Assembly (NCBI RefSeq): GCF_965204195.1
Contig: NZ_OZ241975.1
Coordinates: forward strand, 1,401,184 to 1,465,183
Reading direction: 5' to 3'
Length of the DNA: 64,000 nucleotides
Origin: Candidatus Poriferisodalis sp.
GTDB lineage: Bacteria > Actinomycetota > Acidimicrobiia > Acidimicrobiales > Poriferisodalaceae
The first letter of the stretch is position 1. Each line of letters begins with the position of its first letter. Position numbers and translations under genes: made by a program. This document shows, in pieces, positions 5,300 to 51,966 of this stretch. Below the pieces are notes generated by a model. It did no database searches. It saw only the letters and a program-made list of their open reading frames with translations, and had not been told where the DNA came from.

Positions 5300-6546
5300 A
5301 GCAATCCCTTGCGCGACTGCCGCCAAGGCACATCACGGTCGAGGCGGGGTTCGCCAGGGAGGCCGAGCACTCGCTCGCCCAGGATGTTGCGCTGGATCTC
5401 GTCGGTGCCGCCCCGTATCGACATCGACGGTGCCGTCACCGTCTCGATGTAGCCGTGACCGTCTTCGAGCATGCCTGCGGCTCCCGCGGAGCGATTCGCC
5501 AGATAGGCGCGCCGCTTGTACGACGACACCGTCCTCAGCTTTGCACCGCTGCCTGCCGGTCCCGGACTGCCGCCCGACCGCGCCTCGTCCGCCGCCCGCT
5601 GGGCGGTCCAGCGCGATGCCATGTCGGCGGCGTAGATCGACATGGCTTCGTCGCGTCTCACCTTGTCGTCGAGTGCCCCGAGCGCGGCCAGATCGGTGAT
5701 CCATGTGGGAACGCGGGCGCCACGCTTCGCACCGTCGCCCCCGCCGCGGCTGCCGGCGCCGGCACGCTCGTGCGAGAGGATCGTCATCGCAACCCGCCAA
5801 CCCTCACCCACATCGCCAACCCGCCAGGCATCCGGAACAACAGCGCCGTCCACGAACACCTCGCTGAAATGGGCGTCGTTGTTCATCTGCCGCAATGGCC
5901 GCACGTCGACGCCGGGTGCGTCCATGGCGATCACGAACATCGTGAGTCCCTTGTGCTTGGGCTGTTCCGGGTCGGTACGGGCCAGGCAGATGGCCCACTC
6001 AGACCACATCGCCCGACTGGTCCAGGTCTTCTGGCCGCCGAGCCGCCATACCTCGCCGTCCTGTGCAGCGCTCAGGGCCACGTTGGCAAGGTCCGATCCG
6101 GCCTCGGGCTCGGAGAACATCTGGCACCAGATCTCGGCGCCCGATGCAATCGGCCGCAGCCAGCGATCCTGCTGCTCTGCCGTTCCGTGCGCCAGCAGGG
6201 CAGGGCCCACCATGCCGAGACCGATCGCGAACGGGTAGAGGTCGGGCACCACGTACTCACGCAGCACCGAGCCGATGAGCTGGTTCTCGGCCACCGAAGC
6301 ATCTCGGCCGCCATGGGTGGCGGGCCAGGTCGGCACATGCCAGCCGCCGTCCACGGTCGCTGCTAGGTAAGCCCGGCCCTCGTCGAGGTCGTCGCTTCCC
6401 GCCCCCATCGACGTCAGGCGCGTCTGGTCAGTGCGACGTTCGAGCAGCCCGTCGAGAGCCGCCCGGATGTTGTTTGCGGTGAGCTTCGTTGCGGCGCCGT
6501 CGGTGCCGACCGTCGCTGCTGGCGTCTCCGATGAAGTTGGCATCAC
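5296..6546 (-). CDS. Acyl-CoA dehydrogenase
   Basis: 416-aa ORF with ACAD N, middle and C domains (GSD, KTWTS, GGTDEIQRN). Confidence 0.9.
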   Translation of the reverse strand: MMPTSSETPAATVGTDGAATKLTANNIRAALDGLLERRTDQTRLTSMGAGSDDLDEGRAYLAATVDGGWHVPTWPATHGGRDASVAENQLIGSVLREYVVPDLYPFAIGLGMVGPALLAHGTAEQQDRWLRPIASGAEIWCQMFSEPEAGSDLANVALSAAQDGEVWRLGGQKTWTSRAMWSEWAICLARTDPEQPKHKGLTMFVIAMDAPGVDVRPLRQMNNDAHFSEVFVDGAVVPDAWRVGDVGEGWRVAMTILSHERAGAGSRGGGDGAKRGARVPTWITDLAALGALDDKVRRDEAMSIYAADMASRWTAQRAADEARSGGSPGPAGSGAKLRTVSSYKRRAYLANRSAGAAGMLEDGHGYIETVTAPSMSIRGGTDEIQRNILGERVLGLPGEPRLDRDVPWRQSRKGLL

Positions 6547-6619
6547 GTGTCTGCGCTGGAAGCCGTCCGTGCCGAGAGTGCCGCGTCCAGCGTGCGTGCG
6601 GCGGCAGCGAGGTTTGGCA

Positions 6620-7438
6620 TCAGCTGCGGGTGAAGTTGGGCGTCCGGCGCTCGTTCATGGCGTTGACTCCCTCGCGCCAGTCGTTGGTGGTGCGCAGGCG
6701 ATCCTGCTCGGCCTTCTCGTTGTCGGTGGCCACCTTGATGGCATCGGTCAGGTGGCCGCGCATGGTGTAGCGGATCGACTCGACAGCCAGCGGCGCCGAA
6801 CCGGCGATCTCGCAGGCGAAGTCGTAGGCGACTTGGCGCAGGTCGTCGAGCGGCACCAGCTTGTCGGCCAGCCCGATGTCGACGGCTTCGTCGCCCTTGA
6901 CGCGCCGGCCGGTGTAGAGCAGATCCAGCGCCTGCTGGTTGCCGACGAGCCGGGGGAGCGTCACGGTCAGCCCGAATCCGTGGTGGAAGCCGAGCCGGGC
7001 GAAGTTGGCGGTGAATCGGGCCTCCGGTGCCGCGATGCGAAAGTCCGGGAAGCAGGCCACGCCCAAGCCGCCGCCGACTGCCGCTCCCTGGATCGCGCCG
7101 ACCACCGGCTTGCGCTTGGAGAACAGGTCGAAGGCTGCGTCGTAGAGGTGACGGGGACTGCCGTCGGCGTTGGTAGCGGTGATCTCGCCGCCCCGCCGCC
7201 CGTCGCTGCCGAACTGGGCGCCCGCGCAGAAGTTCTTGCCCTCCGAGCACAGCACGCTGGCCCGGCAGCCGTCCTCTTCGTCGAGGTCGCCGAATGCGGC
7301 AACGAGCCCGTCGATCAGCTCCAGATCGAAGAAGTTGTTCGGCGGTCGGTGAATTTCCACGACCGCCACGTGGTCATCGCTCAGCTTGACCGAGACATCC
7401 CCGTACTCGCCGAATTCGTCAAAGGTGCTCTCATCCAT
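6620..7438 (-). CDS. Enoyl-CoA hydratase/isomerase (crotonase family)
   Basis: From ATG 7438 (MDESTFDEF...). Crotonase signature FCAGAQF and GGG oxyanion region. The upstream part of the 463-aa ORF is Ser/Arg/Pro-rich and non-homologous. Confidence 0.85.
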   Translation of the reverse strand: MDESTFDEFGEYGDVSVKLSDDHVAVVEIHRPPNNFFDLELIDGLVAAFGDLDEEDGCRASVLCSEGKNFCAGAQFGSDGRRGGEITATNADGSPRHLYDAAFDLFSKRKPVVGAIQGAAVGGGLGVACFPDFRIAAPEARFTANFARLGFHHGFGLTVTLPRLVGNQQALDLLYTGRRVKGDEAVDIGLADKLVPLDDLRQVAYDFACEIAGSAPLAVESIRYTMRGHLTDAIKVATDNEKAEQDRLRTTNDWREGVNAMNERRTPNFTRS

Positions 7439-14161: not shown

Positions 14162-16654
14162 TTACTGCTGTAGCGGGCGGCCGGTGGCGGTGACGCGCAG
14201 CGTTGCTTCCACGAAGAGCTCGCGGCCGTTGCTCGGCGCAGTGCGTGTTTGGAAGTCGACGGTGATGGCGGCGTCGCTGGCACCCGCAGCGTCGGCTTCG
14301 GCGCGGACGGCCTCGGTTGCCTGCGCTGTCGCCCACTCGCGGGCTTCGTCGAGGCTGTGCCAGATCGGCGGGTCGTCGCCCCAGTGGGCCCGGTAGCTGC
14401 CGCGGCGCGGCGCTGTCACCGTGATCTGCTTGGTGATCCTGACCCCGGCGACCGCGGCGCCGACGGCGTTCGCCACCTCGGCGTGGTCCGGAACGATCGC
14501 CGCAGTGCCGAGCAGTGCAGCGACGAGCGGGGCGTACGTGGGGGCCGGGGCGCCGATGGCAACGATGGGAACCCCGACGCCGGCATCGACCCGAGCGAGC
14601 GGAGCGCGATCGGCCCGGGTTTCGGCGGCATCGGTCGCGAGCGGGACACTGGCCGACTCGCTGGAATCGAGCAAGCCCCACAGCGGGTTTGCGGGGCGCT
14701 CGTCAGTGGCGTCGCTGGGCACATCAGCGACGGTTCTCTCCAGCTCCCGATGCCTGCGGTCAAGGGCGGTCTGTGCGAGCTGCCGCCGGGTTTCGCCAGG
14801 GGCTATCCCATCTGCACCGAGCGCGACGCTGAGCAATGCTTCGGTAGCGCTGCGCAGCGCGACGTTTATGACCCGTCGGCAGAGATCGACCGCGCCGGTG
14901 CCGACGTCAACGCCATAGCGATCGCGCTGTCGGCTGAACAGCTCGGCACCGGTCCGGGCGGCTGCCGCATCCCACGGTGCGCTCTGCTCTTGTTTCCCAT
15001 GCCTAAGGGAGTCGGGCTCACGGGCCGCTCGGGCCCCGGCCCCGGCATCGATCAAGCCGAGCACAACGCAGGCGTCGGTCGGTGTCAGTGCGCCGCGCCG
15101 CACGCGGCCACTGCGTTCGAGTCGCTCGAGGGCGCCGCGCCAGCGAGCCGATCGCTTGAGGTCCTCCAGCGGAAGTGCACCGCCGGCGCCGTCGACGAGT
15201 CGCATGATCTCGCTGTCGAGGCTGTTCTGGCCTGCGCGGCCGCTGAGGTGCCCGGTGAATACCCCGGTTGCCTCCAGCAGCACCTGCCCGAACTCGGCAA
15301 GTGGCCGCTCGGCTTCGAGCTGGCGTCGCAGCATCGGCAGGACCACGTCGGGATGTTGCAGGGCCGCGACGCACAGCGGCACCACCCTGCGCGGCCCGAC
15401 GGCGAGTTCGCCTCGACTTCCGTCAACCGGGACGCGGATCTCGCTGTCGCCGCCCAGACCCACGGTCACGGTCGGCAGGGCAGTGACCATCGTGGCGTGA
15501 CCGCCCACCGTGGCCGTGTCGGCATCTTCGTTGCCGTCAGCAGCGACGACTGCGCCGTTGCGAATCGCCGCAATGTCCGTGGTCGTGCCGCCGATGTCGA
15601 CCACCAAGAGATCGGCGTCGAGCATCTCCTGATCCGCAGCCGTAGATCTTGCGAGGTGGCGGGCGCCGAGGACGCTGGCCGCGGGACCCGACAACACGGT
15701 CTCGATGGGGCGCTGAGTCATAAAATCCGCCGAGACCAGCGAGCCGTCTCCCCTCACCACCATGAGACGGGCGTCGAGCTGGAGGGATTCCATTGCTGTT
15801 CGGATCGCCTCGGTGAAGCGGGCGGTCACCGAGATGAGCTGTGCGTTGAGCAGCGTTGTCACCGCCCGGCGAGGACCGCCGAGTCGAGGAGACAGCTCGT
15901 GGCTGCAGGTCACGGGCTTGCCGGTGCGTTCGCGGACGGCATCTCGTGCCTGCAGTTCGTGGGCAGCATTGCGAACGCTGAACTGAGCCGCAACGGCGTA
16001 CGCCTCGACTGAGGCATCGACGCGGTCGAGCGCGCGCTCCAGCTCGTCGACGTCGAGCGGGCCTCGCTCGTCGCCGTGGGCGCCGTGGCCACCGCCGACG
16101 ACCACGACCGGCGCCGACGCGAGACTGCCGGTCAGCCGATCACGCCCATTGCCGGCGGGGGGCATGCCGGCTCGCTCACTCGTCACCTCGCCAGCGCCGG
16201 CACGCAGCCCGACGCGGGCCAGGGTCTCGGGTTCGAAGCCGATGGCCACGAGCGCAGCAGGACGCCCAGCGCCCTCGACGAGCGCGTTGGTTGCCAGCGT
16301 CGTGGAGACCGCCACGAGCCCGACGTCGGCCGCGCCGATCGCGTCGGCCGAAGCGCCGCGACCGCCGTTCAGCACACTCGTCATCGCCTCCACCACGCAG
16401 CCGTAGAGATCTTCGTGCCGTGTCGGCGTCTTGGCGGCCGCGATGACCCGGTCGGTGCCGTGGTCGTACACGACGGCGTCGGTGAACGTGCCGCCGGTGT
16501 CAATGCCTAGACAGAAGCGGCCTGACGCCGGCCGGAACGGTGTCGTCACCGCTGAAAGTGTGCCAGCGGGAGCCGCGTGGGCGCGTAGATCTGCCGGTCG
16601 AGTGGACTCGAACGCTCGCGTCGGTGAGACTGCGGGCACGGCGACCGGCCGCAC
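14162..16654 (-). CDS. Hydantoinase/oxoprolinase-family protein with a long C-terminal extension
   Basis: GIDTGGTFTDAV and DIGGTTTDIA motifs of HyuA-type ATPases in the N-terminal ~480 aa. About 350 further residues have no motif I recognise. Start uncertain (GTG 16654, 16639 or ~16546). Confidence 0.75.
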   Translation of the reverse strand: MRPVAVPAVSPTRAFESTRPADLRAHAAPAGTLSAVTTPFRPASGRFCLGIDTGGTFTDAVVYDHGTDRVIAAAKTPTRHEDLYGCVVEAMTSVLNGGRGASADAIGAADVGLVAVSTTLATNALVEGAGRPAALVAIGFEPETLARVGLRAGAGEVTSERAGMPPAGNGRDRLTGSLASAPVVVVGGGHGAHGDERGPLDVDELERALDRVDASVEAYAVAAQFSVRNAAHELQARDAVRERTGKPVTCSHELSPRLGGPRRAVTTLLNAQLISVTARFTEAIRTAMESLQLDARLMVVRGDGSLVSADFMTQRPIETVLSGPAASVLGARHLARSTAADQEMLDADLLVVDIGGTTTDIAAIRNGAVVAADGNEDADTATVGGHATMVTALPTVTVGLGGDSEIRVPVDGSRGELAVGPRRVVPLCVAALQHPDVVLPMLRRQLEAERPLAEFGQVLLEATGVFTGHLSGRAGQNSLDSEIMRLVDGAGGALPLEDLKRSARWRGALERLERSGRVRRGALTPTDACVVLGLIDAGAGARAAREPDSLRHGKQEQSAPWDAAAARTGAELFSRQRDRYGVDVGTGAVDLCRRVINVALRSATEALLSVALGADGIAPGETRRQLAQTALDRRHRELERTVADVPSDATDERPANPLWGLLDSSESASVPLATDAAETRADRAPLARVDAGVGVPIVAIGAPAPTYAPLVAALLGTAAIVPDHAEVANAVGAAVAGVRITKQITVTAPRRGSYRAHWGDDPPIWHSLDEAREWATAQATEAVRAEADAAGASDAAITVDFQTRTAPSNGRELFVEATLRVTATGRPLQQ

Positions 16655-28698: not shown

Positions 28699-28781
28699 TC
28701 GTTCGACTGTAACGGCGCACTGCGGCGACCCTCTTGCAATTCGGCCGACTAACGGGTCCCCGTCAGTAGCTCAGCGGTTCG

Positions 28782-29904
28782 CTAGCGAGCATGTATTGGC
28801 TGCCAGCGGCGGTAGGTGGCGCAGCGCCACAGCCATTCGACGGGACCGAAGGCGAATCGGTCCAGCCAGGCCTTCGACCACCACAGCTGCACCGCCCACA
28901 CGGCCACCACGAACATGGCGATCCCGCTGCGGCTCAGATCCAGATCGTCGAGCAGAACGCCCAGCACCAGCAGGCCGAATGCTGTCTGGGTGAGGTAGTT
29001 GGTGAGCGCCATGCGTCCCGCGGCGCGGATGCGCTGTCGCAGGCCCCCCTCCCTCGCCGAGTTCCACAGGGCGATCAGGCTGAGGTAGCCCAGGCACAGC
29101 GGCACAGTCGCCAGCGTGTTGGGGATGGTGCCCGCCACGGCCCAGTCGATATCGAAGCCCGTGGCGGCCATCAGTGCGAACCCGGCAGTCGACAGCGGCA
29201 AGCCGACGCCGAGGCCCCATGCGGCCATGCGGCAGTAGAACGACGGCGTCTGGTTGCCGCTGATGACACCTGTCCGGTAGAGCGCCGCCCCGATGAGCAT
29301 GGCGCCCAAGGCTCGACCGAAGTAGTCGGCCAGGAACCACGTCTCGATGACGCCGTAGTAGTCGCCGTAGTGCCAGAAGTCGATCAGCACGCTGGAGAAG
29401 CTGCGCAGCGACGACTGCACGACCCACGATAACTGCCACTGCGACGTAGCACGTGCCGCCCAGCGCAAGGAGCACCTTGGCGGGCAGGCGTCGCAGTGCG
29501 AGCACGACCGGCGCGCACAAGGCGTAGGCGAACAGCACGTCGCCGTCCCAGAACGACAGGTGCACGATGCCGATGCCCAGCAGCAGCGCGTTGCGCCACA
29601 GGCTCAGCAGCACGCTGCGCCTGCCCTTCGCCGCGGCCCGCTCGGCGAACAGCACTACGCCTGCGCCGAACAGCATCGAGAACAGGCCCATGAACTTCTG
29701 GTCGGCGAAGATCTCTCCGGCGCCGCCGACAACCCAGTCCAGCGCCGTCCGCGAGCCGCCGGCATCGAGGTTGGCGTAGGCGGCGGCGGGCAGGCCGAAT
29801 GCCACGGCATTCATCGTCAAGATGCCGAGCACGGCCACGCCGCGCACGGCGTCGAGCGTCGTGATGCGTTCAGCGGCCCGCGTTGCCAGCGGACCCGACG
29901 TCAT
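28782..29904 (-). pseudogene. DUF418/YeiB-like membrane protein, disrupted by a frameshift near 29420..29435
   Basis: The N-terminal ~160 aa (frame of ORF 28771..29904) and the C-terminal ~215 aa (frame of ORF 28782..29468, with GRMALTNYLTQ and GPVEWLWR motifs) belong to one family but lie in different frames. Confidence 0.7.
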
Positions 29905-29947: not shown

Positions 29948-31039
29948 TCAGTCGAAGGTGATGACGGTGCGGTTGGATTCGCCGGCCTTCATCCAGCCGT
30001 AGCCCTCGTTGATCTGTTCGAGGTCGATGCGTGCCGAGATCATCTCATCGAGCATGAGACGGCCATCGAGGTACAGGTCGATCATCATCGGGATGTCGCT
30101 GCGGAACTGGTTCGAGCCCATCATCGAGCCCTGCAGCTTCTTCTCAGACAGGAAGTCGATGCCGCGCAGCTCGACCTTGGTTTTCGAGGGCACCATGCCG
30201 ATCACGGTGGCGGTGCCGCCGATGTCGAGCATGTTGAACGCCTGCTGCACCGTCTCGGCCAAGCCGATGGCTTCGAAGCTGTACTCCACGCCGCCCTTGG
30301 TCATGTCCTTCACGGCGGTCACCACGTCGTCCACCTCGGCGGCATTGACGGTGTCGGTGGCGCCCATCTGGCGGGCGGTCTCAAGCTTCGTCTCGGTCAT
30401 GTCCACTGCAATGATCCGACCGGCGCCGGCCACGCGGGCGCCTTGCACGGCCGACAGGCCGATGCCCCCGCAGCCGATCACGCACACCACGCTGCCCACG
30501 CCGACGCCTGCGGTATTCACCGCCGCACCGAAGCCCGTCGTGACGCCGCAACCGATCAGGCATGCCCGGTCGAGCGGCATGTCGGGCCGCACCTTCACGA
30601 CGGCGTTCTGATGCACCAGCATCTGCTCGGCGAAGCCACCGAGCCGAGCCATCTGGCCCACCTCAGTGCTGTCGTCACGCTCCAGTCGGGCTGCGGCGCC
30701 CTTGGCCCGCGAGGTGGCCCGGATGTTGGTGCAGCGGTGCGGGTTGCCCGACAGGCAGCGGTGGCATTGGCCGCAGAAAATCGACAGGCACGCCACCACA
30801 TGGTCACCGGGCTTCACGTAGCTCACGTCGCTGCCCACGGCCTCCACCACGCCGGCCGACTCGTGGCCCATCACCATGGGCAGAGGCGTGCGGAACAGGC
30901 CTTCCATGAAGTGCAAGTCGCTGTGGCACAGACCAGCGCCCACGGTCTGGATGAGCACTTCCTGCGGTCCGGGCGCGTCGATGCGCAGGTCCTCGATCTC
31001 CAGATCGCCCGGCTGTTCGCAGAGCACAGCTGCCTTCAT
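29948..31039 (-). CDS. Zinc-dependent alcohol dehydrogenase (class III / formaldehyde-DH-like)
   Basis: GHESAGVV, structural-zinc Cys cluster CGQCHRCLSGNPHRC, GCGGIG NAD motif. Confidence 0.9.
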   Translation of the reverse strand: MKAAVLCEQPGDLEIEDLRIDAPGPQEVLIQTVGAGLCHSDLHFMEGLFRTPLPMVMGHESAGVVEAVGSDVSYVKPGDHVVACLSIFCGQCHRCLSGNPHRCTNIRATSRAKGAAARLERDDSTEVGQMARLGGFAEQMLVHQNAVVKVRPDMPLDRACLIGCGVTTGFGAAVNTAGVGVGSVVCVIGCGGIGLSAVQGARVAGAGRIIAVDMTETKLETARQMGATDTVNAAEVDDVVTAVKDMTKGGVEYSFEAIGLAETVQQAFNMLDIGGTATVIGMVPSKTKVELRGIDFLSEKKLQGSMMGSNQFRSDIPMMIDLYLDGRLMLDEMISARIDLEQINEGYGWMKAGESNRTVITFD

Positions 31040-31218
31040 GTGACGCCCCCTCGCGTTGTACGGCCACGACAGTGGCTTCGCTTGACATTGCCGAGATTAG
31101 GCGCGCAGCGGAAAGTGCGTGCCCGCCGACGCCCTTCGCGTCCGGGCTGCCATCGGCCGCCCAGGTGGAGGGTGCGGTAGCGTCGTTCCCAGCGAGCCAC
31201 GGCCGTCGAGGGGGAGTC

Positions 31219-31815
31219 ATGGCGAATGAGCACGGCTACTTGCCGAAGGTGACCGAGCTGGACGACAAGCAGCAACGCCGCTTGGACACTTGGTATGCGA
31301 AGGCCTACACCGACGACAACCTCTTCCGGACGCTGGCTGCCGACGAGACCACCATCGACCTGTTCCTCGGTTGGGTCGGTGCTGTGTACGGCGGCCATCC
31401 CGACGAGGATCCCGGTGCACTCGACCGGCACATGATCGAGCTGTGCCGCATCCGTATGGCCAACCGGAACGAGTGCTTCCACTGAAGCCTCGTGCGCAGC
31501 GCATCGTTGGTGCGCACCGGACTGACCGACGAAGTCGTGGCCCAGCTCGTCGACTACGAGGCTTCGGACCTGCCCGAGTCGTGGAAGGCAGCCCTCGCGC
31601 TGTGCGATCGGCTCTCGGGATACGAGCACAAGGGCGTGATCCCACCTGAGCTGTACGAACGGCTGGGGGATCACTTCAACGAGCAGCAGATACTGCGCTT
31701 GGGCGCATTGCTCGCGTCTGCGAGCGGGTGGCATCGCATGATCGAGGCATTCGGCATCCGGCCCGACCACTACCAGGCCCAACAATCTGCCCCTTGGGCC
31801 GCAGCAGCGGGTTGA
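31219..31815 (+). CDS. Carboxymuconolactone decarboxylase/AhpD-family protein with in-frame TGA (31483..31485) at the second Cys of CxxC; candidate selenoprotein (or nonsense pseudogene)
   Basis: ORFs 31072..31485 and 31492..31815 share one frame and are separated only by TGA. Read-through gives ...RMANRNECFH[TGA]SLVRSASLVRTGLTDEVV..., the CMD/AhpD core. ATG 31219 is preceded by GAGGGGGAG. Confidence 0.6.
31492..31517 (+). promoter_or_regulatory. SECIS-like hairpin immediately downstream of the in-frame TGA
   Basis: GTGCGCA (31492..31498) pairs perfectly with TGCGCAC (31511..31517). Extendable by C-G and G-U pairs over one G-G mismatch. The stem starts 6 nt after the TGA. Confidence 0.45.
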
Positions 31816-31878: not shown

Positions 31879-32739
31879 GTGACCCCAGAGGCACCCGACA
31901 CCGAACCGCTGTCGCCGGGCAGCCGGCTCGCAGAGGTCGTCGAGTTCTTCGGCGTGCAGGCCACCGACGACGAGTTGCGCTGGCTTCTGCCCATCTCGCC
32001 GAACGTTGCCAACTATCTCGGTGTGATGCACGGCGGCTGCGCGCTCGCGTCGGTCACTGCCGCTGCCGAGACATGGAGCGAACGGCCGGTTGCATCGGCT
32101 TCGGCGCAGTTCATGTCCCGTGTCCCTCTCGGTGGCAGCGCAGAGATCACGTTTGACATCGGGTCGGCCGGCAAGCGGATGACCCAGGTGCTCGCGCGGG
32201 TCGTCGATGCAGCCGACGGCAGCGTGCTGATGCTAGCGCTGCTGTCGCTGGGCGGTCGGCGGCTCGGCATCGACCAGGACTGGGTGCAGCCGCCGGATGT
32301 TCCGGCGCCGGAGGAGTTGGCGCGCCGTTCTGTGCCGGACAACGCCGTTCCATCGTTCAGCACAGAGGCCGACATCCGGTTTGCGCCCTACAGCGCCGGC
32401 GATCGCAGGATCCTCTGCTGGGCGCGACTCGCTGGCACGCTGGCGTCCACCCGCCAGGGTCTGATTGCGTTGGCGGACACGCTCGCAACGGGGATGCACC
32501 TGAGCCTCGGCCGCAAGTGGCGTGGCGCGAGCCTCGACAACACTGTGCGCATCGCAGGCGACGCCGACTGCGAATGGGTGCTACTCGACATCGAGACCGA
32601 CGGCTTCCACAACGCTGTCGGTCACGGCGTCGTGCGGATCTTCGCCCCCCATGGCGCTTTGCTGGCGACAGGGAATCAGTCATTCGCCGTGGCGCGGGTG
32701 GCCGGCCCCTCGAGGGCTTCCGGCTGTAGTCAGCACTAG
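31879..32739 (+). CDS. Acyl-CoA thioesterase-like (double hotdog) protein, paralogue 1
   Basis: GTG start. GVMHGGCALA and the C-terminal half resemble TesB-like/PaaI-like hotdog thioesterases. Tandem paralogue downstream. Confidence 0.65.
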   Translation: MTPEAPDTEPLSPGSRLAEVVEFFGVQATDDELRWLLPISPNVANYLGVMHGGCALASVTAAAETWSERPVASASAQFMSRVPLGGSAEITFDIGSAGKRMTQVLARVVDAADGSVLMLALLSLGGRRLGIDQDWVQPPDVPAPEELARRSVPDNAVPSFSTEADIRFAPYSAGDRRILCWARLAGTLASTRQGLIALADTLATGMHLSLGRKWRGASLDNTVRIAGDADCEWVLLDIETDGFHNAVGHGVVRIFAPHGALLATGNQSFAVARVAGPSRASGCSQH

Positions 32740-32750
32740 CTTTCGGCTCC

Positions 32751-33602
32751 GTGAGCGCCGAAGCTGCCACAAGCGACGCTGCGCCGCAGGACCCGCACGT
32801 CGGCGAGGTGATCGAGTGGTTCGGCCTCCAGTCGACGGCCGAAGAGCTGCGTTGGCTGCTGCCGGTGACCTACGACGTGGCTGGTGCCACCGGCACGTTG
32901 CATGGCGGGTGTGCGCTCGCGGCCGCCGTGGCGGCTCTCGAGAGCGTCACCGGCCGGCCCATGGCCGCTGCATCGGCGCAATACCTGGCGCGGCTGCCGG
33001 TGGGCGGCTGTGCGGCCGTCGCTCTCGACATCGGCGCCAGCGGCAACCGGATGACCCAAGCCTCCGCTGAGATCACCGATGCCGCCGACGGCCGGGTCAT
33101 TCTGCGTGCGCTCGTGTCCCTCGGCGGTCGGCAGCTAGGCATCGACCAGACGTGGACGACCGCACCCGACGTGCCGCCGCCGGACTCGTGCGAGCCCCGC
33201 GGCTCGACGTCGATCGAGGGCCGCTCGTTCACCGACCACGCAGACATCAGGCTCGCCGGGCAGCAGCCGGGCGAGCGCCACGTCCGGTACTGGGCGCGCC
33301 TCGACGACACGCTGGCATCGACCGGGCCGGGCCTGACGGCGCTGGCCGACCTGCTGCCGAGCGGCATGCGCGTCAGCCTCGATGCCGGATTCAGGGGATC
33401 CAGCCTCGACAACACGGTGCGGATCTCCGGCGAAGCCGAGAGCGAATGGGTGCTCCTCGACATCGAATCCGACGCCGTCCACAACGCCATCGGCAACGGC
33501 ATCGTTCGCATCTATGCCTCCGACGGGGGGCTGCTGGCGACCGGCACCCAGTCGTTCGCGATCACCCGCATCACTGGTCCCCTGGGCTCGCCGCAGCAAT
33601 GA
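32751..33602 (+). CDS. Acyl-CoA thioesterase-like (double hotdog) protein, paralogue 2
   Basis: Collinear with 31879..32739 along its whole length (GTLHGGCALA, SLDNTVRI, WVLLDIE). Similar upstream context (TAGCTT(T)CGGC..GTGA). Confidence 0.65.
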   Translation: MSAEAATSDAAPQDPHVGEVIEWFGLQSTAEELRWLLPVTYDVAGATGTLHGGCALAAAVAALESVTGRPMAAASAQYLARLPVGGCAAVALDIGASGNRMTQASAEITDAADGRVILRALVSLGGRQLGIDQTWTTAPDVPPPDSCEPRGSTSIEGRSFTDHADIRLAGQQPGERHVRYWARLDDTLASTGPGLTALADLLPSGMRVSLDAGFRGSSLDNTVRISGEAESEWVLLDIESDAVHNAIGNGIVRIYASDGGLLATGTQSFAITRITGPLGSPQQ

Positions 33603-51048: not shown

Positions 51049-51966
51049 TCAGCGCCGCTCGGCGATGGCTTCTGCGGTCGCGACGATCTTGCGCGCCCGC
51101 GTCAAGTGCGGCACATCCACCATCTGACCCTTGTGGGCGAATGCCATGAGGCCAGCGGCCTCGGCCTCGGCGAACGCTTCCAGCAGCTCACGGGCGTCGG
51201 CCAACTCGGCATCGCTCGGCGTGAACGCTGCGTTGACGATGTCGATCTGGGCAGGATGGATGGTGATCTTGCCGGTGAAGCCCATAGCGGCCGACGTGGC
51301 GCACTCGGCAGCCAGCCCCTCGTCGTCGCGGAAATCCACGAACACCGTGTCGAGCGGCTGCTTGCCCCATGCCGTGGCACCCACCAGGCACATCACCCGG
51401 GCGTACTCGAAGACGGGCAGATAGGCGCCTGTGGCGTCCCGGTTGGCCTTCGAGCCCATGGCCGCAGAGAGGTCCTCGGCACCCCAGCTCAGCGCATCAA
51501 CCCGGTCGTGGCGGGCGAGTTCGCCGATGTTCAGCAGCCCCTGCGGGGTCTCGGTTCCCAGCACCAGCATCACCACGCCGCCGGGCGAGTGGCCGTGCTC
51601 CAGCTCCCAGCGGGTGATCATGCTGTCCAGCTCGGCGACCTCTGCTGCATTGTTCACCTTCGGCACCAGGTAGGCGTCGGGCGGCGAGACCATCGTCTCG
51701 GCGACATCGGCAGCGCACCACGGCGTGTCGAGCGGATTGATGCGCACTACCCGCTCCTTGGCGCCGAAGTCGACATCGGCCAGCCAGCCCGCAACCGTGG
51801 CGCGGGCGCTGTCCTTGTTGTCGGGGGTGACGGCGTCCTCGAGATCGAGCACGAGGCTGTCGGCATCGGTTGCGATCGATTTCTCCAGCATGCGCTCGTT
51901 CGCACCGGGCACGAAATGCGATGACCTCCGCACGGTCCCGCCGGCGGGGCTCGGTGACTCGTCCAT
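51049..51966 (-). CDS. citE: HpcH/HpaI aldolase / citrate lyase beta subunit-like (CitE, acyl-CoA lyase) protein
   Basis: FVPGANERMLEKS...DSLVLDLEDAV motif region typical of CitE/malyl-CoA-lyase-like proteins. Confidence 0.85.
   Translation of the reverse strand: MDESPSPAGGTVRRSSHFVPGANERMLEKSIATDADSLVLDLEDAVTPDNKDSARATVAGWLADVDFGAKERVVRINPLDTPWCAADVAETMVSPPDAYLVPKVNNAAEVAELDSMITRWELEHGHSPGGVVMLVLGTETPQGLLNIGELARHDRVDALSWGAEDLSAAMGSKANRDATGAYLPVFEYARVMCLVGATAWGKQPLDTVFVDFRDDEGLAAECATSAAMGFTGKITIHPAQIDIVNAAFTPSDAELADARELLEAFAEAEAAGLMAFAHKGQMVDVPHLTRARKIVATAEAIAERR

Follow-up and report, generated by a model that had tools for sequence, protein, structure and literature searches.

The locus described here raises the question of whether a single in-frame TGA ends a gene, marks its decay or is read as selenocysteine (Sec). 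It lies in a stretch of 64,000 nucleotides from Candidatus Poriferisodalis sp. (NCBI RefSeq assembly GCF_965204195.1, contig NZ_OZ241975.1, positions 1,401,184 to 1,465,183 of the forward strand), hereafter called the window and numbered from its first letter. Two open reading frames (ORFs) of the forward strand, 31072..31485 and 31492..31815, are in the same frame, and between the ATG at 31219 and the terminal TGA at 31813-31815 the sole stop is the TGA at 31483-31485. An earlier reading of the DNA letters without database searches (the sequence-only reading) had noted this arrangement and a read-through product of 198 codons; both were confirmed on the sequence, the 198 codons (31219..31815, one frame) including that of Sec89 and being followed by the terminal TGA. 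The analysis presented here indicates that 31219-31815 on the forward strand is very probably a single gene for a 198-residue thiol-selenol oxidoreductase of the AhpD/carboxymuconolactone decarboxylase (CMD) superfamily, with a predicted Cys86-Phe-His-Sec89 centre in which the UGA would be decoded as Sec.

The in-frame UGA (31483..31485), the proposed Sec codon, is the last codon of a redox motif. The codons TGC TTC CAC TGA (31474..31485, forward strand) would specify Cys86-Phe-His-Sec89 (CxxU) and align with the CxxC of homologues of the cysteine form (CVHC, CHHC, CAYC). The peptide reads ELCRIRMANRNECFH up to the stop and SLVRSASLVRTGLTDE after it, in the context NRNE-C-F-H-[TGA]-S-L-V-R-S-A-S-L-V-R-T-G-L-T-D-E. 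A Shine-Dalgarno-like GAGGGGGAG (31208..31216, forward strand) lies upstream of the ATG, and related loci with a comparable upstream region carry GAGGGGGAGT[CT] or a GGGGGAG/GAGAGGAG variant before the ATG.

Species-representative genomes were scanned with the family alignment, yielding 24 loci from as many Acidimicrobiia species genomes. All are metagenome-assembled genomes, assigned to Candidatus Poriferisodalis, Poriferisodalaceae, Microthrixaceae or Acidimicrobiales, and the window protein is 96-98% identical to its closest counterparts among them. The first in-frame stop is a TGA at the same codon in every one of the 24 loci, within NECFH-TGA-S in 23 of them and DCGY-TGA-K in the distant L024; TGA likewise occupies the site in L027 and L030. 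Past the TGA the frame is intact and runs on until a TGA or TAG terminates it, for a total of 192-208 codons in the 23 loci of the close family, and neither half contains an additional stop or frameshift in any of the 24 species genomes. The orthologues all begin with MAN(E/K/Q/D)HG. Pairwise ratios of nonsynonymous to synonymous substitution (dN/dS) ranged from 0.03 to 0.29 in the N-terminal part and from 0.05 to 0.39 in the C-terminal part, including pairs with dS >1. Since purifying selection acts on either half across species with saturated synonymous sites, the downstream half must be translated within the same protein. The comparative data indicate that this is almost certainly a selenoprotein gene rather than a pseudogene. 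The proposal of the sequence-only reading, an AhpD/CMD-type gene in which a Sec UGA replaces the second Cys of CxxC, was thus borne out by the invariant TGA and by dN/dS well below 1 on both sides of it.

Further support for Sec at this position comes from the protein databases. A search of 5.8 billion proteins returned almost exclusively half-length matches, namely C-terminal pieces of ~110 aa that begin just past the TGA position, together with a single full-length Cys form (P0006, containing NNGCVHCSLARSA) and a single protein in which the site is W. When 1.84 billion representatives were searched exhaustively, the significant clusters included 19 N-terminal fragments ending exactly at C-x-H, as opposed to 3 Cys forms; the family is therefore predominantly of the Sec form. 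The residue at the site is Cys in P0006, P0014 and P0015 (C-V/H-H-C-S), and it is likewise Cys in CxxC homologues further removed; this is the Sec/Cys pairing that the sequence-only reading had proposed as a test. The codon concerned was read as TGC (contig of P0006; Cys-form locus L026). The exact C-terminal ORF recurs in independent sponge-metagenome assemblies, where gene callers give genes of 88 aa and 107 aa. Indeed, in every assembly examined the gene appears as two pieces of 88 aa and 107 aa, each called a "hypothetical protein", and the public records hold it as fragments only, the NCBI name of one of these (P0009) being "hypothetical protein".

Immediately downstream of the UGA we found a conserved hairpin, GCGCAUC-GUU-GGUGCGC (31499..31515, forward strand), which is a candidate bacterial selenocysteine insertion sequence (SECIS) with its loop (31506-31508) 20 nt past the UGA. 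In the RNAalifold consensus, 31499-31515 is paired in 17/17 sequences, the sole change being G-C to G-U; the conserved stretch AGCGCATCGTTGGTGCGC covers 31498-31515. Codons 94-98 (AGC GCA TCG TTG GTG) are identical in all 24 loci despite 4- to 6-fold degeneracy; nowhere else in the gene, whose mean synonymous heterozygosity is 0.36, do five degenerate codons in a row stay invariant (permutation p = 0.0007). Two of the frozen codons, GCA and TTG, are disfavoured in this genome, where they account for 12.6% of Ala codons and 6.6% of Leu codons, respectively. The 17-nt hairpin sequence is frozen across >40% protein divergence. The bacterial SECIS (bSECIS) model calls for a loop of 3-9 nt whose first two positions include a G, in most cases with G or U after it, a stem of 4-16 bp, a distance of 16-37 nt from the UGA and a folding energy of -7.5 kcal/mol or lower (PMC13188914). 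This model is fitted in 22 of the 24 loci, with a spacing of 20 nt, a GUU loop, a 7-bp stem and -8.8 kcal/mol. Analogous hairpins occur in other subfamilies: CCUCGGC-CGUGA-GCCGGGG at a spacing of 23 in L030, whose site reads CVH-TGA-S, and CUCGCU-CGUGA-AGCGGG at a spacing of 24 in L024. In a further relative, L028, the window-type hairpin is kept with a U·G pair changed to U-A. The motif occurs once in the window, with no second copy. No RNA family was detected in the window by an Rfam scan at gathering thresholds, and a permissive scan of 31400-31650 was empty even at E <= 10. With the E. coli fdhF-type SECIS/bSECIS consensus (PMC13188914, Fig. 2) the element shares its place within the coding sequence just 3' of the UGA and a small apical loop starting with G-U; it differs in having no sequence similarity, no Rfam match and a minimal 3-nt GUU loop, and its SECIS role is a prediction from sequence. 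Judged by the pattern of conservation, the hairpin at 31499-31515 is a SECIS-type structure under RNA-level constraint, to which SelB would bind.

The sequence-only reading had placed the SECIS in a larger hairpin, formed by the 7-bp stem GUGCGCA/UGCGCAC (31492-98 / 31511-17) with two inner pairs (31492..31517, forward strand). This stem exists and is the minimum-free-energy fold (-13.2 kcal/mol), but as a SECIS it had to be rejected since it is not conserved among orthologues. Of 17 orthologues, 8-11 have lost the pairing of 33-36 with 51-54; in 10-11 of the 17 the 5' arm reads GUCAAGA or GUGAAAA (Arg93 to Lys), with the four central pairs gone, and the CAUCGU loop has no G in its first two positions. 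The larger hairpin can form in Arg93 variants only and shares its 3' arm with the conserved one. In Arg93 variants, including the window, the two mutually exclusive hairpins compete; Lys93 variants form only the conserved hairpin. A 5-bp mini-hairpin that contains the UGA, GCUUC-CAC-UGAAGC (31475..31488, forward strand), was also seen by alifold, with wobble-compatible changes only, and the Ser codon following the UGA is AGY in 24/24 loci and never TCN. This pattern may reflect a constraint on the context of UGA decoding, or it may be a mere consequence of Cys and Phe codon choices.

The family was placed by comparing its profile with the PDB. The best matches were 2ijc and 7xw1 (P. aeruginosa AhpD PA0269; E = 5.5e-16), followed by 2gmy (2.3e-10) and 2prr (2.9e-10). 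In the profile alignment C86-F-H-U89 falls on C-A-Y-C of PA0269, so that the Sec codon corresponds to the second Cys. The AlphaFold model obtained for P0006, a Cys homologue, is all-helical (pLDDT 70, pTM 0.71), and the top 25 Foldseek hits with this model are AhpD-like or CMD-family proteins only, at modest TM-scores of 0.42-0.52. By profile, the protein is a member of the AhpD/CMD superfamily that stands outside every curated selenoprotein family. A Bmp8-like debrominase role was considered, Bmp8 being one of the PDB matches, and rejected; the match is weak (profile E = 8e-5, fold rank 24) and has no other support.

Sec-containing AhpD-like proteins are known from surveys, as the sequence-only reading had noted: AhpD-like/CMD-domain CxxU selenoproteins were first reported in 2005 from the Sargasso Sea, they count among the commonest selenoprotein families of ocean metagenomes, and at least five sub-families are listed in a 2026 review (PMC1088965, PMC2398784, PMC13188914). 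The 'AhpD-like 1' (COG2128), 'AhpD-like 2' (PF02627) and 'CMD domain-containing protein' groups of these surveys (PMC1088965, PMC2398784, PMC13188914) belong to the same superfamily and, like the window protein, carry Sec as the second residue of CxxU, in alignment with the CxxC of Cys homologues, with a SECIS-like hairpin right after the UGA; they come from marine and environmental bacteria. The present clade differs from them in scoring far below every curated model for those groups and in having its own N-terminal signature MANxHGxLPK...DDNLF, a C-F-H-U motif and 24 genome loci that are all from Acidimicrobiia. The best NCBIfam matches, NF053654 ('YciW-related (seleno)protein') and NF041238 ('AhpD_rel_CFYUT alkylhydroperoxidase-related (seleno)protein', the 'hypothetical protein 1' of the Sargasso Sea), have the same fold, and the CFYUT active site of NF041238 is nearly identical to CFHUS of the window protein. 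NF041238 proteins are, however, ~357 aa long and align with the window protein through their C-terminal domain only. The window protein belongs to neither family, because its scores are far under both cutoffs and its alignment with NF041238 is partial. The solved structures that come nearest in profile (E = 5.5e-16 to 2.9e-10) and fold, PA0269 (2ijc, 2o4d, 7xw1) and the 'peroxidase-related' AhpD-core proteins 2prr, 3c1l and 2pfx (TIGR01926), are all-alpha proteins of ~145-190 aa with CxxC at the aligned position; they have Cys instead of Sec and ~20-22% identity. The gene is a new member of the known AhpD-like CxxU selenoproteins, and its clade is one that curated models do not cover and that is annotated as fragments only.

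Several observations speak against this interpretation. Taken singly, the read-through protein scores 19 bits with the Pfam CMD model (PF02627; cutoff 23) and stays below the cutoff of all NCBIfam selenoprotein models (NF053654, 33 bits versus 310; NF041238, 21.9 bits versus 175). The AhpD/CMD assignment of the sequence-only reading stands by the family profile (E = 5.5e-16), and fails by the single-sequence Pfam comparison. The scores with TIGR00778 (ahpD_dom; 13.3 bits, cutoff 27.8) and TIGR01926 (19.5 bits, cutoff 81.8) are also too low, and the Cys homologues P0006 and P0015 likewise fall below the curated cutoffs of the same NCBIfam models. The conserved hairpin on its own is unremarkable: the region gives z = -0.25 against dinucleotide shuffles, and ~11% of random positions in the 67% GC window have a bSECIS-fitting hairpin downstream. 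The weight of the hairpin consequently comes from the synonymous-site freeze and from the analogous hairpins in other subfamilies. Within the clade it has zero compensatory covariation, because it is invariant, and in the window the stabler competitor (-13.2 versus -8.8 kcal/mol) lacks a loop G. Two rare relatives retain the hairpin and have a sense codon at the site, GGA (Gly) in L028, on ENA contig ERZ1758341, and TGG (Trp) in L029, a Logan SRR33230282 contig in which the downstream region is frameshifted and the gene broken. Such sense codons could reflect a recent loss of Sec, or errors in the sequencing of short contigs. Finally, the 64-kb window and ~480 kb of related loci, which amount to <2% of a genome, yielded no selA, selB, selD or tRNA-Sec.

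ARAGORN reported no tRNA-Sec in the window and no tRNA of any kind in the 24 loci, and tblastn with unverified E. coli SelA, SelB and SelD probe sequences gave no match in window or loci, a result that is uninformative genome-wide. No other selenoprotein gene, sought as a frame through TGA supported by the GC content of third codon positions (GC3), was present in window or loci, where such cases were only gene ends or antisense frames. TGAs with GC3-rich frames on both sides are found at 16010, 22238 and 61809 on the forward and at 51051 and 55142 on the reverse strand, none of them beside a redox motif; these five look like gene ends before in-frame neighbours, or antisense frames. A literature search for 'Poriferisodalis' found no paper. 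Related organisms lend indirect support: all 84 complete genomes of Actinomarina (Acidimicrobiia) are reported to encode selA, selB, selC and selD (bioRxiv 10.64898/2026.04.03.716425). In a sponge microbiome study SelA and SelB were enriched in symbionts (PMC5649159), and the sponge Acidimicrobiia bin76 has SelA, SelB and SelD (PMC5649159 Table S4). The gene would imply Sec decoding of UGA in Ca. Poriferisodalis and related Acidimicrobiia, in agreement with the SelA/SelB enrichment in sponge symbionts.

Among the alternatives, the one that survives best, although we consider it improbable, is that the locus encodes two polypeptides of 88 aa and ~100-107 aa that assemble with each other, or that a near-cognate tRNA reads through the UGA with insertion of Trp, Cys or Arg. 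An invariant GTG (codon 98) could restart translation downstream, the C-terminal ORF is readily found by gene callers, the Sec machinery of this genome is only presumed, and L029 illustrates that TGG is one mutation away. On the other hand, the internal stop is always TGA and never TAA or TAG, although TGA and TAG both serve as genuine terminators of these genes. Its position coincides exactly with that of the second, catalytic Cys of CxxC, so that a split at this point would remove the active residue. The other GTG, at codon 92, varies, with GTC, GTA or GTT in its place in 14/24 loci, and by eye no GGAGG-type Shine-Dalgarno motif is seen just upstream of GTG98. A SECIS-type hairpin is also conserved at canonical spacing, with analogous hairpins in other subfamilies.

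That a TGC to TGA mutation has killed an AhpD-like gene, and that the hairpin is coincidental, can hardly be maintained. Such a nonsense pseudogene would agree with the lack of any Sec machinery gene in the window and related loci and with the annotation of fragments only, as 'hypothetical protein', by gene callers and NCBI; in addition, a neighbouring gene of the DUF418 family is frameshifted, so local decay or sequencing error does exist. Against it stand the same TGA in 24/24 species genomes with both halves otherwise open, the dN/dS well below 1 downstream of the TGA even at dS >1, and the frozen synonymous sites of the hairpin. One relative appeared to show decay, namely the closest database relative, P0002 (L025). 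Its apparent frameshift comes down to a single surplus G within a CCC/GGG run, and the contig, to judge from its name, has 2x coverage; TGA, hairpin and the frame downstream are all intact. As a 1-nt homopolymer insertion, the frameshift was rejected as a sign of decay. P0013 also appears frameshifted, judged from its protein sequence alone. A sequencing or assembly artefact, or a lineage-wide code change making TGA a sense codon, is barely credible: some database translations do read W or G at the site (P0001, P0016, P0028, P0037), but the W of P0001 is a TGA translated with a different genetic code, the TGA of this site recurs in 24 independent genomes and several independent metagenome assemblies, and the genome is not recoded, because TGA serves as the normal stop of 16/25 confident window genes, and of the selenoprotein gene itself.

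For the single Sec-containing protein, the following mechanism can be proposed. At the UGA, SelB·GTP·Sec-tRNA(Sec) would bind the apical G-U of the hairpin, so that Sec is inserted and the ribosome does not terminate. In M. tuberculosis AhpD it is the second Cys that acts as the nucleophile. If the analogy with AhpD holds, the selenolate of U89 could serve as the nucleophile and attack a peroxide, sulfenic acid or disulfide substrate; a selenenylsulfide would then form with C86 as the resolving residue and be re-reduced by a cellular thiol system. M. tuberculosis AhpD (1knc), an alkylhydroperoxidase that reduces AhpC, is the mechanistic template for this chemistry, being of the same superfamily with a CxxC-type centre. 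It is a weak match by fold, however (rank 37, E = 6.3), and it also differs in that no ahpC adjoins the window gene. Nothing peroxiredoxin-like was identified beside the gene either, as far as its immediate neighbours are concerned, the wider window being only partly annotated.

The immediate neighbours are a Zn-dependent alcohol dehydrogenase (ADH), two acyl-CoA thioesterase-II-like genes and a UbiA-family prenyltransferase. The ADH gene (29948..31039, reverse strand; Pfam ADH_N and ADH_zinc_N) is class-III-like and divergently oriented, separated from the selenoprotein gene by an intergenic region of 179 bp (31040..31218), for which sequence comparison defined no regulatory element. Its best NCBIfam matches, both below cutoff, are NDMA-dependent ADH and mycothiol-dependent formaldehyde dehydrogenase. 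In most loci the ADH adjoins the selenoprotein gene or sits within ~5 kb of it, at 80-99% identity. This conserved divergent Zn-ADH may share regulation or a pathway with the selenoprotein.

A bolder reading would see in this work the founding description of a distinct, mainly Sec-form AhpD-like family (MANxHGxLPK...C-x-H-U-S) in Acidimicrobiia, including the sponge symbiont Ca. Poriferisodalis, with a minimal 17-nt GUU-triloop SECIS. Its members would perhaps partner the class-III-like (mycothiol/NDMA-type) Zn-ADH, for example in a selenol-dependent detoxification of aldehyde or thiol adducts in the sponge holobiont. We regard this as a speculative and rather unlikely proposal. In practical terms, merging the two "hypothetical protein" halves into one selenoprotein puts right the annotation of at least 24 species-level genomes, and the 17-nt GUU-triloop element, invariant over deep divergence, could serve studies of SelB recognition in actinobacteria. 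General knowledge of selenoproteins and of AhpD chemistry is unchanged by the finding.

Some further features of the neighbourhood were observed. Upstream of the ADH, the DUF418-family gene (28701-29904, reverse strand) is frameshifted in the window as compared with the intact 403-aa gene of L025, residues 1-159 being in frame -2 (29904-29428) and residues 159-402 in frame -3 (29432-28701); it is either a real pseudogene or the product of an assembly indel error. The acyl-CoA thioesterase-II-like genes (4HBT_3 / 4HBT_3C) are tandem paralogues directly downstream of the selenoprotein gene, at 31879-32739 and 32751-33602 on the forward strand. Their copy number appears to vary among related genomes: by tblastn, L002-L004 and L007-L009 have two copies and L005, L006 and L011-L013 apparently have one, whereas L014 and L016 gave none. 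A stretch of ~4.2 kb lies between the ADH and the selenoprotein gene in many Ca. Poriferisodalis genomes (5822-10000 in L002, and similarly in L004-L009, L011-L013 and L015). In L002 this stretch holds a 476-aa ORF (5939-7369, forward strand); in the window the two genes are adjacent.

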